A stretch of DNA of 64,000 nucleotides from Candidatus Bathyarchaeota archaeon (GTDB lineage Archaea > Thermoproteota > Bathyarchaeia > TCS64): the NCBI GenBank assembly GCA_018396865.1, contig JAGTRB010000010.1:7967-71966 (forward strand), written 5' to 3'. How positions within the stretch are numbered: the stretch's first letter is position 1; every line of letters begins with the position of its first letter. A program made the position numbers and the translations under genes. Under the pieces are notes generated by a model. It saw only the letters and a program-made list of their open reading frames with translations, searched no databases and had not been told where the DNA came from. Below are positions 46,250-52,446 of this stretch, piece after piece.

Positions 46250-47179
46250 TCAAACCTGAACCCCTTTGAGGATCCATGGATAGCGCCTAAGAACAGCCTC
46301 TAGGATTATGTGGGGGGAGATCACCCCATCCTCGCAGATAAGGCCGTGTATATAGTCTCTCCTCGTCACGTCGAAGGCCGGGTTCCTTATCATGAGCCCT
46401 TCGGGCGGGTTGGCCCAAACCTCTTGGGGGGATCTCTCCTCTATGGCCTCATAATCGCCGTGTATGGTCTGGGGATCGAACTTTAGGAGCTCGGAGGCCA
46501 CATAGAATGGAACCCGAGCCTCCTGGGCTGCTAGGGCTATGAGGCTGGTCCCCACCTTGTTGATGACATTCCCCTCCGAAGTTATCGCATCAGCTCCCAC
46601 CAGCACCTTGCTGATCCCCCTCATAAAGGACCTTACAGCCGAGTCCACGATCATCGTAGCCCCTATCCCCGCCTCTGAGAGCTCCCTGGCCGTCCTCCTC
46701 CCCTGGTAGAGGGGGCGCGTCTCTGTCAAGACCACCTGGAAGTCTATTCCCCTCTCCTTTGCTCTCTTCAGGATCATCATCACGGTGGAGCTGTGGCAGT
46801 GTGTCAGGATCATATCTCCGTTCAATATCCTCCTAGAGCCGACCTCGGCTATCCTCCTCCTCGCATCCTTGAAGGTTTCGAGAAGCTCTTGGGAGGTCTT
46901 TCTGATGAGGGGCCTCAACTCCTCGATATTCTTCCATTCAGCCTCCTCAACCCTAGACCTCAGGAACCTTATGGCGTTTCTCATGAAGGGCTCCGTCTCC
47001 CTCGCCGAGAAGAGTATCCTACTCGCCTCGTCCAACTCCCGAAGGGCTGAGGCTCGGTCTTGAGCTTTGGATATCTCGATCTGCTCTACTATGGCTCTGA
47101 GGGCGGTTAGGGCCACGCCTGTGGCCCCCTGAACCTCAAGCCTCCTTATCCTCTCAGCCGCCTCTATCACCCGCTCCAA
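46250..47179 (-). CDS. eIF-2B alpha/beta/delta-family protein (ribose-1,5-bisphosphate isomerase type)
   Basis: Family signatures, and a length of 309 aa consistent with R15P isomerase rather than MtnA. Confidence 0.7.
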   Translation of the reverse strand: MERVIEAAERIRRLEVQGATGVALTALRAIVEQIEISKAQDRASALRELDEASRILFSARETEPFMRNAIRFLRSRVEEAEWKNIEELRPLIRKTSQELLETFKDARRRIAEVGSRRILNGDMILTHCHSSTVMMILKRAKERGIDFQVVLTETRPLYQGRRTARELSEAGIGATMIVDSAVRSFMRGISKVLVGADAITSEGNVINKVGTSLIALAAQEARVPFYVASELLKFDPQTIHGDYEAIEERSPQEVWANPPEGLMIRNPAFDVTRRDYIHGLICEDGVISPHIILEAVLRRYPWILKGVQV

Positions 47180-47652
47180 TTCAACCCCTAAAGGCTATCA
47201 CGCCAGATGTTTTATACACTGCCCTAGAGATGCTTAACAAGCCTTCTCTCCCCTCCGACTTTTATGCTCTGATGGGGGCCTACCCTAGCCCGTAATTCAC
47301 AGAAACATTTCAAACTCTATGAGAATGGGCCTGGCGCTGCGAGGTGGATGCTCTTCCTATCCTGTGTTATTGTGATTAAAAGATGGGCTCCAACGGTACC
47401 TTCAACTATTGGGAAGGGCCCAGCAGTGCGAAAGCTTCCGATTTCCCTTATCCATTGGGCCCATGATGCTTATTGTGTACTCTATTGGAAAACCACTCCA
47501 ATGGATGGCCTTAAAGCCCCTTAAAGATAACCTGGCATCATCACCCTCTTTGAGATTTCAGTTTCCTTTTGAGGTTTAAGTTGAGGTAGGGAAAACTGCT
47601 TGAATGGTTGGAGGAAGGGATATTTCAGACTGTGAAAGTGGGGAGAGAAAAG

Positions 47653-48723
47653 TTAGAAGTGCCTGAAGCACCTCTCGTCGGTGAAGGCCATGGCTATCCC
47701 ATGCTCTTCGCAGGCCTTTATGACCTCCTCGTCCCTTATGGAGCCTCCTGGTTGGATGCAGGCTGTGATGCCGTACTTGGCCATGAGCTCGACCGAGTCT
47801 GAGAATGGAAAGAATCCGTCGGAGGCCAGTACAGCTCCCTTCAGCTCCTCTCTGTGGCCCCTCTCAGCGGCCTTCTCTAGGGCCAGCCTGACAGCCGTCA
47901 CCCTGTCCTGCTGCCCTGCGCCGATGCCTAGAGTAGCCCTGTCTCTGGATACTACTATCCCGTTCGATCTCACGTTCATACAGATGTACCAGGAGAATAT
48001 GAGGTCGTCGAGCTCCCTCTCGGTGGGGTTTCTCCTGGTCACTATCCTCAGATCCCCCGGCCCTCTAATCCTCGTCAGAAGGGGGGCTGAGACTATTATT
48101 GAGCCGTCAACGAGGATGGAGATGTTGTATGGCTGGGGGGGATCCCCTATGAACCTGCTTAGAGTGGCTAGATTCTGGAACTGGATTATCCTCAAGTCCC
48201 TCCTACTCGAGAGAACCCCTATGGCCTCCTCCTCGAATGAGGGGGCCGCCACCACCTCAACGAAGGTTGAAGCGACCTCCTCGCCTGTCCCCTCATCCAA
48301 GGTCGAGTTGAAGACTACGACGCTCCCGTAGGCCGCTACGCTGTCGCAGTCCCTAGCCCTTATATAGATATCCCTGAGGCTTTCAAATCCGCCTCTGGAG
48401 GCCGCAACGCCCGAGGGGTTCAGGTGCTTCATGACGGCGCAGGCCGGCTCCTCGAAGTACTTGAGGATGTTTAGGGCGTTGTTGACGTCCTCTATGTTGG
48501 TCTGGCTTAGGCCCCCCTTCCCCCCCTTTATCAACTTCAAGTTCCCAATGACCGGATGGCCTCTCAACGGCCTGTATAGGGCAGCCGGTTGGTGGGGGTT
48601 CTCCCCATACCTGAGGCTCATCGCCTTCTCGTAGATCATCTCCTCCCCGCCTATGTGCATGCTGAGCCTATCGGGAAAACCCTCCTCGGTTGGGGTCCTA
48701 TACCTTTTCCTCATCTCCTCCAA
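47653..48723 (-). CDS. purH: AICAR formyltransferase domain of PurH (C-terminal part)
   Basis: LRYGENPHQ, MKHLNPSGVA and a C-terminus of PurH type (DAFFPF..QPGGS..D). Lies in the same frame as the upstream ORF, separated from it by a single TGA. Confidence 0.85.
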   Translation of the reverse strand: MEEMRKRYRTPTEEGFPDRLSMHIGGEEMIYEKAMSLRYGENPHQPAALYRPLRGHPVIGNLKLIKGGKGGLSQTNIEDVNNALNILKYFEEPACAVMKHLNPSGVAASRGGFESLRDIYIRARDCDSVAAYGSVVVFNSTLDEGTGEEVASTFVEVVAAPSFEEEAIGVLSSRRDLRIIQFQNLATLSRFIGDPPQPYNISILVDGSIIVSAPLLTRIRGPGDLRIVTRRNPTERELDDLIFSWYICMNVRSNGIVVSRDRATLGIGAGQQDRVTAVRLALEKAAERGHREELKGAVLASDGFFPFSDSVELMAKYGITACIQPGGSIRDEEVIKACEEHGIAMAFTDERCFRHF

Positions 48724-48726
48724 GCC

Positions 48727-49410
48727 TCACCCTCCTCCCATGAGGTGTCTATAGATGGCCTCGTCGTAATCTGAGGTCCTCCTGAAGGCCTCCACGGCGA
48801 GCCTCCATCTCAACCCCTCGGGAAGATTCCCATTATGCCTCTTGAGGCCCTCCACCACCTCCTCATACTGGGATGGATCGACTACCACCGCGACCCTTCC
48901 ATGGAGTAGGCTGGCCTTTGCGGCTGCCCTGATCAGGGCGGGGCCTCCTATATCGATTCCAACCGCTGCCTCCCTCCACCCTCCCCTAGCTGCATACTCC
49001 TCGAAGGGGTATAGGTTGACAACCACTAGGTCTATGGGCTCTATTCCCCACCTCTCCATGTAGCTCCTGTGTTCCGGGTTTTCGGGATTGAGGAGTATGC
49101 CTCCATGGATCTTGGGATGGAGGGTCTTGAGCAATCCTCCAGGCGCCTCCGGGAAGCCCGTGTACTCCGAGACCTCCATCACCCTTCGATACCCCGCCCT
49201 CCTTAGCCAGGCCGCGGTTCCCGAGGAGGCGACGACCTCGACCCCCAGGGAGGCCAGAACCTCGACTAGTTTATCTAGGCCCCGTCTATCCGAGACGCTT
49301 ATCAAGGCCCGCCTGATCAAGCCCTTATCAACTCGATTTCTATCTTTGGAGCCATCATTTAAATTGATGATTCTCCCGGGATTTCGGCTCTGAGGGGAGA
49401 GGTTCTCCAA
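48727..49410 (-). CDS. purH: IMP cyclohydrolase (MGS-like) domain of PurH (N-terminal part)
   Basis: ALISVSD..GL, TLHPKIHGGIL and VVVNLYPF match the PurH N-domain. Confidence 0.85.
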   Translation of the reverse strand: MENLSPQSRNPGRIINLNDGSKDRNRVDKGLIRRALISVSDRRGLDKLVEVLASLGVEVVASSGTAAWLRRAGYRRVMEVSEYTGFPEAPGGLLKTLHPKIHGGILLNPENPEHRSYMERWGIEPIDLVVVNLYPFEEYAARGGWREAAVGIDIGGPALIRAAAKASLLHGRVAVVVDPSQYEEVVEGLKRHNGNLPEGLRWRLAVEAFRRTSDYDEAIYRHLMGGG

Positions 49411-49538
49411 AAAAATGGGGAGGAGGCATTTTTATGAAGGGAAAGGCCTCCGAAGGTGACTGCCACGAGTTCGGGTGGTATGGCCTGGGCTGCCTTTTGT
49501 AGCCCCTTGGATTCTCGGGACTAAGATCTGCGCTGAGC

Positions 49539-50990
49539 CTAGGGGGTTCTCCCTGAGCCAGGTAGGAGGATGTCGTGGGGCTTCAGCTCATCGGCTCCCT
49601 TCTCCGTGACGAGGGCTAATCTGGCCTTCTCCCACATCTGGGTTATGTTCTCCGCCCCTACGTAGCCCATGGCTGCCTGGAGGCCTCCCACGAACTCGGA
49701 GACTATGTCGGCGACTGTCCCCCTGTATGGGACCCATCCCTCCACCCCCTCATCTATTGTCTTTGAGGGCTGGGAGTACCTGTCCTGGGCGTACCTTTTC
49801 CTCTTCGCAGCGGCGCTACCCATCCCATAGTACTCCTTGTAGTATCTCCCCTCCAGGGCGACCAGCCGCCCTGGGCTCTCTCTACACCCGGCGAAGACGT
49901 TGCCCATCATGGTCGATGAGGCCCCCATCGCCAGGGCGACCGCTACATCCCCTGGGTTCCTTATCCCTCCATCGGCTATTATCGGGATGTCCGCCCCATA
50001 ATCCCTCACGGCGTCTGCCGCCTGGGATACTGCGAAGAGGGTTGGGGATCCCGCCCTTGTCACCACGCTCGTTGTGCAGATGGAGCCGCTTCCTATCCCG
50101 ACCCTTAGACCCCCTATCCCTTCCAGCTTGGTTATGCAGTCCTCGGCGGCCTCATATGTGCCTATGTTCCCAACCACTAACTCGGCGGAGATCTCCTTCA
50201 ACATCCTCTTTGTCGCCTCGAAGCAGTTTCTATTGTGGAAGTGGGCGACATCGGTGAAGAGGACGTCAACGTATTTGTCGAGGGCCTTGGCCCTAGGGAG
50301 GTCGAAGGGGGATATGGCGGCGGCGCAGACTAGCCTCCCCTCCTCGTCTCTTATCGCGTTGGGGTAGGTGCCCTTCAGGGTTATGTCCCTCATGGTTATG
50401 AGGCCCCTCACCCTTCCCTCCCCGTCGACTATGGGGAGCTTCTCTATCCTCTCCCTGTGGAGGATCCTCTTGGCCTCCTCTAGGGTGATGGCCTCGCTAG
50501 CCGTTATCACGTTCCTCGTCATCACGTCCCTCACCCTCAGGGATGGATCTGCCAGGCGGACATCTCTGGCCGTGACGATGCCTATTAGCTTCTCATCATC
50601 CTCGACAACGGGGAATCCGTGGATGTTGTGGGCCTCCATCAGCCTTAGAAGCTCCTCTACGGTTATATCCGGGCCCACTGTGACCACATCCCTTATGATG
50701 AGGGCCTCAGCCCTCTTAACCCTCCTCGCCATCTCCACCTCCGCCTCCACGGAGCAGTTCCTGTGGAGGACGCCGAGGCCTCCCTGCCTTGCCAGGGCTA
50801 TGGCCATATCGCTCTCGGTGACCGTGTCCATGGGGGAGGAGATGAATGGGACATTCAGCATCACCCTCCTGGTTGCCCTGCTCCTGACATCAACCTCTGA
50901 GGGCTCCACGGAGGTGAATCCTGGAAGCAGAAGGACATCGTTGAAGGTAAGGGCCTGAACGGCTTTAAACAGCTTATCCCTAAAACCCAT
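49539..50990 (-). CDS. guaB: inosine-5'-monophosphate dehydrogenase
   Basis: Catalytic loop GIGSGSICTT and a CBS pair insertion; 483 aa. Confidence 0.95.
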   Translation of the reverse strand: MGFRDKLFKAVQALTFNDVLLLPGFTSVEPSEVDVRSRATRRVMLNVPFISSPMDTVTESDMAIALARQGGLGVLHRNCSVEAEVEMARRVKRAEALIIRDVVTVGPDITVEELLRLMEAHNIHGFPVVEDDEKLIGIVTARDVRLADPSLRVRDVMTRNVITASEAITLEEAKRILHRERIEKLPIVDGEGRVRGLITMRDITLKGTYPNAIRDEEGRLVCAAAISPFDLPRAKALDKYVDVLFTDVAHFHNRNCFEATKRMLKEISAELVVGNIGTYEAAEDCITKLEGIGGLRVGIGSGSICTTSVVTRAGSPTLFAVSQAADAVRDYGADIPIIADGGIRNPGDVAVALAMGASSTMMGNVFAGCRESPGRLVALEGRYYKEYYGMGSAAAKRKRYAQDRYSQPSKTIDEGVEGWVPYRGTVADIVSEFVGGLQAAMGYVGAENITQMWEKARLALVTEKGADELKPHDILLPGSGRTP

Positions 50991-51180
50991 CCGACCACCG
51001 GTGTTTTAACTCACGATGAGAACTTGGGGTTATTAACGTTTTACTTTTAGCTTGATCCGTTGGGAGGAGGGATTCCAGAGGGGTGAAATCTTGAGGTTAT
51101 CCTCAAAGAGGTGTTTCAGGGGATCGAGAGCGTTCGAGAGGTGGCGGCCTCTAAGGGATAGGATATATATAACCTTGTTT

Positions 51181-51188
51181 TTATATCT
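51181..51188 (+). promoter_or_regulatory. TATA box (TTTTATAT) about 25 nt upstream of the 51208 start
   Basis: Spacing and sequence agree with the archaeal BRE/TATA consensus. Confidence 0.5.
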
Positions 51189-51207
51189 GGCCAAGGATGG
51201 TTAGTGG

Positions 51208-51459
51208 GTGGGGGTCTTGAAGGCTTTCGTCCTCATGAACACAGAGCTGGGCCAGGAGGCCTCAGTGGTTGAGGCCTTGACCCGTATGGAGGGGGTTAAA
51301 AAGGCCTACGCCCTCTACGGCATCTATGACGTCATCGCTGAGATAGAGGCCGAGTCCATGGATAATGTAAGAAACATAGTCTTCACTAAGATCAGGCAGC
51401 TGCCGAATGTCAGGAGCACCGTGACACTCATCACATACGGAGAATCCTTTATCAGGTAG
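51208..51459 (+). CDS. stand-alone Lrp/AsnC ligand-binding (RAM) domain protein
   Basis: 83 aa with a beta-alpha-beta-beta-alpha-beta-like pattern matching the AsnC C-terminal domain. Confidence 0.6.
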   Translation: MGVLKAFVLMNTELGQEASVVEALTRMEGVKKAYALYGIYDVIAEIEAESMDNVRNIVFTKIRQLPNVRSTVTLITYGESFIR

Positions 51460-51564
51460 ATCCGGCGGTCCTCAAGCCCTTTGAACCTAACTTCATGATC
51501 TTTTAAACTATGCTTCTCTTATTAGTCAAATCTGATTTGGATTTCCTTTCTTTTTAGTGTTTCT

Positions 51565-52446
51565 CTATTTCAAGATCTTCCCTGTCATCATATACCATAT
51601 ATAGAGGTCTAGTTCTGCGGGGGTTATTCCCATCCTTCCGGCTATGGCCCTCATTAGAGCCTCAAGCCTTATGTATAGGGATTTGCTCAGACCTCTAGGG
51701 ATCTCGGTTATCAGCCCCTTCCCCCATAGAAACCTCAATATGTGCCTGTCTAGGATGGCCAGATTTTTTGACCCCGTGTTCCTGAGGAAGTGGCTCGCCT
51801 CCTTATATCCTAGCCCCTTCACCTCTCTCACAAGCCATTCCCTCGCCTCCATCTCATCCATGTTTCTTAGGGTCTCCTTGAGCCTCCCGTGGAGCCTCCT
51901 GGCCTCGACTATGTACTCAGCCCTTGCCTCGGGGTATCTGTGCCCCAGCCTTCTCAGTTCCCCTGAGAGCTTCTCCCTCTCCAGCGTCAGGAGACCCCTT
52001 CCAAGGGCTTCCTGGATCTTCATCCCCCCCTCTGCGGTGTAGTTGGCTGTGAGGATGCAGAAGCACAACTCCCTGAAGAGGCTCTCCTCGTCCCCTCCAG
52101 CCTCCTCAAACGATCTGATTCTTTCCTCGACGATGGGCCTCACCTCCTCCACCGCTTTCATGAGCTCCCCTAGGAAGTCGAGCCTGGCTATCCAGACTTG
52201 AAATCTGGGTCCTCTAACCTCCTCGTAGCGCCATAGGGTGTGGGGGGCCCCAGAGACCTCCTCTAGGATGTGTACGAGGTCCATGAAGTAGTCTGAGACC
52301 CCGCAGGTCTCGCACATGCTTCCCGAGAACCTGAGCGTTATAACCCTTCCCTTTATCGATAGAAGCTCTACGGAGGCCTCCCTTCCGAAGATCTTTGAGA
52401 ACTCCTCTATAGCTCTCTCTACCTCTCCCCTATCTATGAGGCTCAC
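51565..52446 (-). CDS. ogg: 8-oxoguanine DNA glycosylase / N-glycosylase-DNA lyase (HhH-GPD, Ogg2/AGOG-like)
   Basis: HhH with catalytic Lys (GLGYKEASHFLRN) followed by Asp (LAILDRH). Confidence 0.7.
   Translation of the reverse strand: MSLIDRGEVERAIEEFSKIFGREASVELLSIKGRVITLRFSGSMCETCGVSDYFMDLVHILEEVSGAPHTLWRYEEVRGPRFQVWIARLDFLGELMKAVEEVRPIVEERIRSFEEAGGDEESLFRELCFCILTANYTAEGGMKIQEALGRGLLTLEREKLSGELRRLGHRYPEARAEYIVEARRLHGRLKETLRNMDEMEAREWLVREVKGLGYKEASHFLRNTGSKNLAILDRHILRFLWGKGLITEIPRGLSKSLYIRLEALMRAIAGRMGITPAELDLYIWYMMTGKILK

Follow-up and report, generated by a model that had tools for sequence, protein, structure and literature searches.

Fused PurH, a single polypeptide joining an inosine monophosphate (IMP) cyclohydrolase (IMPCH) domain and a formyltransferase domain (AICARFT) acting on 5-aminoimidazole-4-carboxamide ribonucleotide (AICAR), is the rule in bacteria and eukaryotes. 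In 44 bacterial taxa, two separate genes, purV and purJ, have been reported to take the place of purH (Cruz et al., 2019; PMC6486802). In the same survey, purV and purJ were found together in none of 137 complete archaeal genomes, and none of purH, purV, purJ and purO was found in Crenarchaeota, Korarchaeota or Thaumarchaeota. The unfused PurH2 AF1811 of Archaeoglobus fulgidus is active in vitro and in complementation, and the human domains retain activity when each is made on its own, with no substrate channelling between them (PMC6797443), so that a split enzyme is functionally unproblematic. In the 64,000-nucleotide (nt) stretch of a Candidatus Bathyarchaeota archaeon genome analyzed here (contig JAGTRB010000010.1; below called the window, to which all positions refer), the two PurH domains were found in two minus-strand open reading frames (ORFs) that are separated by an in-frame TGA (Table 1). 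We consider this locus to be a natural two-gene purH, a bicistronic purJ-purV (PurH2-PurH1) unit whose translation is probably coupled, and give this reading a probability of about 0.93. A literature search on Bathyarchaeota and purH retrieved no description of an adjacent unfused purJ-purV arrangement.

Like the bacterial purJ/purV pairs (PMC6486802), the locus encodes IMPCH and AICARFT by two genes that replace purH, with the same domain boundary, but the Bathyarchaeia pair is archaeal and always directly adjacent in the order purJ-purV. Its first gene resembles Archaeoglobus AF1811 (PMC6797443, PMC3261824) in encoding a stand-alone IMP cyclohydrolase of about 200 amino acids (aa) with an MGS-like fold, activity being known for AF1811 only; PurH2 of Archaeoglobi is, however, paired with the folate-independent PurP and not with an adjacent PurH1/PurV gene. 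The haloarchaeal PurN-PurH1 and PurO system (PMC3261824) likewise has an archaeal AICARFT domain without an attached IMPCH domain, but there PurH1 is fused to PurN and the cyclohydrolase is the unrelated PurO, whereas PurH1 of Bathyarchaeia stands alone and adjoins PurH2. Compared to bifunctional PurH/ATIC (NF002049, TIGR00355; PDB 1g8m, 1p4r, 3zzm, 4ehi), the window has the same two domains in the same order with the same catalytic motifs, and differs in having two polypeptides, neither of which reaches the equivalog cut-offs, a longer linker region and a conserved, lineage-specific N-terminal motif in purV.

Table 1. Coordinates of the features at the purJ-purV locus of the window
Feature	Position	Strand	Remarks
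Candidate archaeal TATA box ATTTAAAT	49357..49364	-	37-44 nt upstream of purJ start
purJ / PurH2, stand-alone IMP cyclohydrolase, 197 aa	48727..49320	-	TTG start 49320-49318, TGA stop 48729-48727
Shine-Dalgarno-like run GGAGGAGGGTGA	48727..48738	-	Last three purJ sense codons, one base and the stop; 3 nt upstream of purV start
purJ TGA stop codon, in-frame with purV	48727..48729	-	From translation; identical in four independent assemblies (L081-L084)
purV / PurH1, stand-alone AICAR formyltransferase, 356 aa	47653..48723	-	TTG 48723-48721 (alternative ATG 48714-48712), TAA stop 47655-47653

Domain Content of the Two Genes

On the minus strand the junction reads, 5′ to 3′, CAC CTC ATG GGA GGA GGG TGA GGC TTG GAG GAG ATG AGG. 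The IMP cyclohydrolase ORF ends in HLMGGG followed by the TGA, the AICAR formyltransferase ORF starts 3 nt past it without a change of frame, and when 49410..47653 is translated in one frame, this is the only internal stop. An earlier description made from the letters of the window (below, the sequence-only reading) had given the positions of the TGA, the TTG and the ATG, which were found to be exact both in the minus-strand sequence and in the translation. That description had spoken of a bifunctional PurH interrupted by a TGA; the stop is real and parts the IMPCH from the AICARFT domain, so that they are not on one polypeptide, but an interrupted bifunctional gene it is not, since the genes are split in all relatives examined.

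The upstream ORF showed matches to Pfam MGS (PF02142, E=1e-13) and to profile positions 5–57 of PF01808 (AICARFT_IMPCHas), and in the bifunctional PurH model NF002049 it covered positions 4–193 of 510 (E=8e-60). The downstream ORF matched positions 71–311 of PF01808 (E=1e-63) and positions 207–510 of NF002049 (E=3e-98). This coverage of the Pfam and NF002049 profiles, far beyond chance, bears out the proposal that the two ORFs correspond to the two halves of PurH. Scores against NF002049 and TIGR00355 were 203 and 193 bits for the upstream ORF and 330 and 276 bits for the downstream ORF, all below the curated cut-offs of 402 and 528 bits. The domain order is that of fused PurH, as had been claimed, but the linker length agrees only approximately: about 40 residues lie between the end of the IMPCH match and LRYGENPHQ as compared to about 22 profile positions, and the region equivalent to the linker thus exceeds that of the fused NF002049 profile by about 18 residues.

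The purJ product was found to be a stand-alone PurJ/PurH2 of about 200 aa, with an MGS-like domain and an N-terminal PF01808 segment and without an AICARFT domain. A 227-aa ORF starting at 49410 was rejected as a mechanical over-extension, since homologues, including the 197-aa protein P0001 (99% identical), begin at the TTG at 49320, and the start at this position was kept as TTG or ATG in relatives. The motifs KTLHP, NLYPF, IDIGGP and RAAAK align with the solved PurH structures 9ou7 and 3zzm, and we take them to be the sites of human Lys66, Tyr104, Asp125 and Lys137. These four are the catalytic residues of IMPCH in human numbering (PMC3261824); purJ appears to keep them, and conversion of FAICAR (formyl-AICAR) to IMP is its predicted activity. 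The candidate TATA box in front of purJ was found at equal distance in the two nearest relatives (ATTTAAAT in L085 and ATATAAAT in L086), and none was seen in more distant lineages.

In the purV product, as in a stand-alone PurV/PurH1, PF01808 is represented by its AICARFT part, the LRYGENPHQ and K-H (MKHLNPSG) active-site motifs are present and an IMPCH domain is lacking. The motifs LRYGENPHQ, MKHLNPSG, RSNG and FFPF were invariant in the AICARFT alignment (A1) and align to the solved PurH structures 4ehi and 3zzm. Against the NCBIfam equivalog of the stand-alone enzyme, NF005492, only partial matches with a score of 134 bits were obtained (cut-off 415 bits), and purV thus resembles the AICARFT half of bifunctional PurH more than it does the NF005492 family. 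A protein of 356 aa with 100% identity (P0121) is present in an NCBI Bathyarchaeota record, where its start is the TTG adjoining the stop. P0121 at NCBI and many purV homologues bear the source name "IMP cyclohydrolase", whereas the ORF contains the AICARFT part of PF01808 only; this label on the formyltransferase half belongs to the neighboring purJ.

At its N terminus purV carries the motif x-x-K-S-M-R-K-R-Y-R-T..E..FP (48640–48723), which is common to the split AICARFT proteins and of which Y8, E14 and P17 were invariant in alignment A1. The motif lies outside the bifunctional PurH profile, the match to which begins at residue 29, and it may stand in for the linker or form a contact to PurJ.

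Age and Maintenance of the Split

Each half was searched separately against a collection of 5.8 billion proteins, and the best 120 matches per half were examined. For the IMPCH half, all 120 homologues were stand-alone proteins, mostly of 195–202 aa, with identities from 99% down to about 55%. For the AICARFT half, all 120 were likewise stand-alone and had a length of 335–373 aa (mode 357 aa), with identities from 100% down to about 60%. Homologues of both halves with a named source were from Bathyarchaeia/Bathyarchaeota. An identical junction was present on contigs of four sequencing runs (SRR27730042, SRR27730037, SRR28530382, and SRR27730040). The ratio of nonsynonymous to synonymous substitution rates (dN/dS), determined with relatives for which dS was unsaturated (dS<1), was 0.17–0.19 for the IMPCH half and 0.13–0.16 for the AICARFT half, i.e., both halves are under purifying selection. 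This shows that the split in Bathyarchaeia is genuine, that it is ancient and that selection maintains it.

One stop between the halves of a usually fused gene looks, superficially, like a mistake of sequencing or assembly or like a nonsense mutation that has recently turned a once fused purH into a pseudogene, which was among the explanations offered by the sequence-only reading. True breaks do occur elsewhere, for instance in a frameshifted bacterial purH (L079) and in a broken neighbor gene (L093 compared to L094), both described below. Here, however, the identity of the junction in four independent assemblies, to which the NCBI record can be added, excludes a sequencing error, and the low dN/dS together with intact catalytic motifs excludes a recent pseudogenising mutation; moreover, the split was found in every Bathyarchaeia homologue examined, down to 55–60% identity. 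The break is thus shared by other assemblies and relatives and is accompanied by sustained selection, and error or decay can practically be dismissed.

In a comparison of the IMPCH half with representatives at 50% identity, lengths were mixed and many entries were contig-end fragments. Two of these representatives, P0241 (400 aa) and P0245 (407 aa), contained two IMPCH-like stretches each, which suggests that a PurJ unit was duplicated in tandem or that two such units were fused.

Comparison of Junctions among Bathyarchaeia

Junction DNA was compared between the window and nine further distinct Bathyarchaeia lineages, which were obtained via contig look-ups of the encoded proteins (Table 2). 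In all 10 lineages purJ and purV were adjacent and split, with a frame offset of 0, 1, or 2 and a spacing of -29 to +5 nt. The purJ stop codon was TGA in seven lineages, TAG in two and TAA in one, and a start codon (ATG, GTG, or TTG) was located at or adjoining the upstream stop in 10/10. This variation in frame, stop codon and spacing supports two cistrons and not a conserved readthrough. The genuine split with a restart at a nearby TTG or ATG, which had been listed among the possible encodings, is thereby supported by the conserved split and by the start codon, usually accompanied by a Shine-Dalgarno-like run, a few nucleotides from each upstream stop, and a single interrupted gene is refuted by the close relatives, in which two separate genes with their own start signals were found.

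Table 2. The purJ-purV junction in 10 Bathyarchaeia lineages; identity is that of the AICARFT half compared to the window
Lineage	Identity	purJ stop	Spacing to purV start	Frame of purV
Window	100%	TGA	+3 nt	in frame
L086	86%	TGA	+4 nt	+1 frame
L085	84%	TAG	29-nt overlap	+1 frame
L087	71%	TGA	+3 nt	in frame
L001	69%	TGA	10-nt overlap	out of frame
L089	69%	TGA	GTGA overlap or +5 nt	out of frame
L090	68%	TGA	+1 nt (nearby ATG)	out of frame
L092	63%	TGA	+2 nt	out of frame
L093	62%	TAA	+1 nt	out of frame
L095	62%	TAG	+3 nt (GTG start)	in frame

Programmed readthrough or recoding, by which the TGA would sometimes be decoded by a near-cognate tRNA or as selenocysteine or tryptophan to give a full-length bifunctional PurH, was considered as well. 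Its product would reproduce the domain order of fused PurH, and in the window and two of the nine other lineages the ORFs are in the same frame and a single codon apart. An in-frame arrangement in 3 of 10 lineages is, however, what is expected by chance, and in the nearest relatives, L086 (86%, 4-nt gap) and L085 (84%, 29-nt overlap), purV was found in the +1 frame. Neither the position and frame of the stop nor its codon identity (TGA, TAG, or TAA) is conserved; the downstream part has its own start signal, with a start codon always at or next to the stop and an SD-like (Shine-Dalgarno-like) run at every junction, and the N terminus of purV is conserved from that point onward. Furthermore, translation with the standard code gives 59 ORFs of 120 aa or more that do not overlap and together occupy 85% of the window, and 21 of these 59 end in TGA, which is a normal stop in the window. 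A scan of the whole window with Rfam at gathering thresholds detected no element, including no selenocysteine insertion sequence (SECIS) or known recoding element. We therefore regard programmed readthrough, although proposed earlier, as very unlikely, and the same-frame arrangement in the window genome is incidental. Decoding of the TGA as selenocysteine or by a reassigned code was rejected, given how often ORFs of the window end in TGA and how the frame varies between lineages.

Start Codon and Probable Translational Coupling of purV

The proposed two-gene unit would be expressed as follows. Both minus-strand genes, arranged head to tail in the order of the fused PurH domains, would most likely be on one transcript from a promoter upstream of purJ, since the 3-nt spacer leaves no room for another promoter. 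Ribosomes would terminate at the purJ TGA, and translation of purV would begin 3 nt downstream at the TTG at 48723, or, less likely, at the ATG at 48714, coupled probably by termination-reinitiation and/or SD-guided initiation on GGAGGAGGGTGA. The separate polypeptides would then catalyze the two final reactions of de novo IMP synthesis, purV presumably being dependent on 10-formyl-tetrahydrofolate.

Among 95 homologues matching the N-terminal motif, the residue aligned with the internal Met of the ATG at 48714 was Met in 54, Leu in 29 and Ile in 12, and the codon at this position was CTG or CTA in L093 and L095. As the internal Met is often Leu or Ile, the start shared by the family is the one adjoining the upstream stop, TTG 48723 in this case; use of ATG 48714 in the window species is possible.

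The archaeal Shine-Dalgarno consensus is GGAGGTGA, which GGAGGAGGGTGA resembles. Duplex energies were predicted between the 20 nt upstream of the purV start and an assumed archaeal anti-SD, GAUCACCUCCU. The duplex of the window had -12.2 kcal/mol, which placed it among the strongest 3.6% of 20-nt windows inside both genes, and in 10/10 lineages the energy was below the background mean, with tail fractions of 0.02–0.32. The run, including the stop codon that it contains, would thus probably help initiation of purV.

In experiments with Haloferax volcanii and Escherichia coli, termination-reinitiation took place only at overlaps or very short distances, and intragenic SD motifs contributed to it often, but not always (PMC6728339, PMC10666635). 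The window pair is similar to coupled unidirectional pairs (PMC6728339, PMC10666635) in being co-directional, in having stop and start a few nucleotides apart and in carrying the SD inside the 3′ end of the upstream gene. Its distance (+3 nt; -29 to +5 nt in relatives) lies within the overlapping or very short range of co-directional coupled pairs (PMC10666635), whereas the canonical overlap is -4 or -1, and coupling at the window is predicted from sequence.

In a variant of the two-gene reading that differs in the mode of initiation only, purV would be translated independently of purJ, by de novo loading of ribosomes on the internal SD or on an internal transcript. The fairly strong SD-like run (-12.2 kcal/mol, 3.6% tail) would suit this, as would the spacing of +1 to +5 nt in most lineages as opposed to the -4 or -1 overlaps that dominate in coupled pairs (PMC10666635). 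On the other hand, the distances, including the overlaps in L001, L085 and possibly L089, are within the range of termination-reinitiation (PMC6728339, PMC10666635), a weak SD precedes purV in L093, L001, and L090, and a separate promoter has no space. Independent initiation is a serious possibility, although we do not favor it over the coupled unit.

Several points weigh against a coupled purJ-purV unit as proposed. The anti-SD sequence was assumed, no 16S rRNA gene being found in the window by the Rfam scan at gathering thresholds, and the SD was modest in 3 of the 10 lineages. Co-transcription, the choice between TTG 48723 and ATG 48714 and the coupling itself are predictions, and the published coupling experiments were mainly on 4- or 1-nt overlaps, as compared to the distance of +3 nt, itself short, in the window. 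Finally, the one-codon spacer after the in-frame TGA might conceivably allow low-level, leaky readthrough, by which a small fraction of fused PurH would arise in the window species.

Genomic Surroundings

Synteny was conserved between the window (46250–52446) and loci L081–L095. Genes for an AsnC-family regulator and for IMP dehydrogenase (IMPDH; guaB-like, with CBS domains) were located upstream of the pair, and therefore an IMP-consuming enzyme adjoins the IMP-producing pair. Downstream, either an IF-2B-family gene or a PF02274 (ADI-family) gene was found. The PF02274 gene was present as pieces of 81, 274 and 95 aa in L093 (3864–4959) and of 81 and 372 aa in the near-identical L094 (3864–5253), a difference that is either a real break or an assembly difference.

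In the window, a gene-free spacer of 473 nt (47180–47652) follows purV up to the IF-2B-family gene. It showed 57% column identity with L085/L086, with many gaps, and no Rfam match. Its last approximately 50 nt include a conserved TATA-like sequence, GTATAAAA, presumably the promoter of the gene after purV. A conserved element in this spacer was not retained as a candidate, the spacer being poorly conserved except for this TATA-like promoter of the next gene.

Fused and Unfused PurH in Other Genomes

Genome contigs were scanned with the AICARFT alignment, in which the patterns LRYGENPH and MKH[LV]NPSG are universally conserved, and the resulting loci were used as an outgroup set. Almost all loci listed were bacterial fused purH, with one Bathyarchaeia locus among them. 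Both halves were in one ORF in 74 of the 80 loci listed, all of them bacterial except for a Hadarchaeota locus and one from an unclassified archaeon, and the split is therefore lineage-specific. Two haloarchaeal loci (L035 and L078) had no IMPCH match nearby, which is consistent with the PurH1-PurN fusion of Halobacteria.

The best AICARFT match listed from outside Bathyarchaeia (46% identity) was in a Lentisphaeria metagenome-assembled genome (MAG; L002, CAUZRT010000011.1, 3001–4029). Only 62 open codons precede this bacterial gene, and no IMPCH match lies within 3 kb of it; it is apparently a purV that stands alone and could be related to the archaeal purV. In a Gemmatimonadaceae MAG (L079, CAVSYH010000020.1, 2622–4020), the purH halves were in different frames with overlapping match coordinates, which looks like a genuine frameshift or an assembly error, in contrast to the clean split of Bathyarchaeia. 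ForH (PDB 6nko_A), a solved stand-alone IMPCH-domain homologue of 216 aa, also matched purJ (E=9e-22), but is much more distant from it than the PurH matches; it shows that unfused PurH2-like proteins also occur outside core purine synthesis.

An ancestral unfused condition has been postulated for the pathway (Xu et al., 2007, as discussed in PMC6486802). The gene order, which equals that of the fused domains, and the lineage-specific N-terminal motif of purV raise the possibility that the Bathyarchaeia pair is a surviving pre-fusion state of PurH and not the result of secondary fission. We consider this unlikely; if true, the pair would be a living example of the postulated condition.

Implications

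For annotation, these results mean that neither a pseudogene nor an assembly error nor a recoding site should be recorded at the in-frame TGA; the split arrangement is ordinary, and public records already list it as two genes. The purJ-purV pair of Bathyarchaeia is an archaeal case in which both halves of PurH are unfused and adjacent, a combination present in no archaeon of the 2019 survey (PMC6486802). Understanding of the pathway is left unchanged by this finding. Having a PurH1-type enzyme implies that formylation during purine synthesis depends on folate in this Bathyarchaeia lineage.

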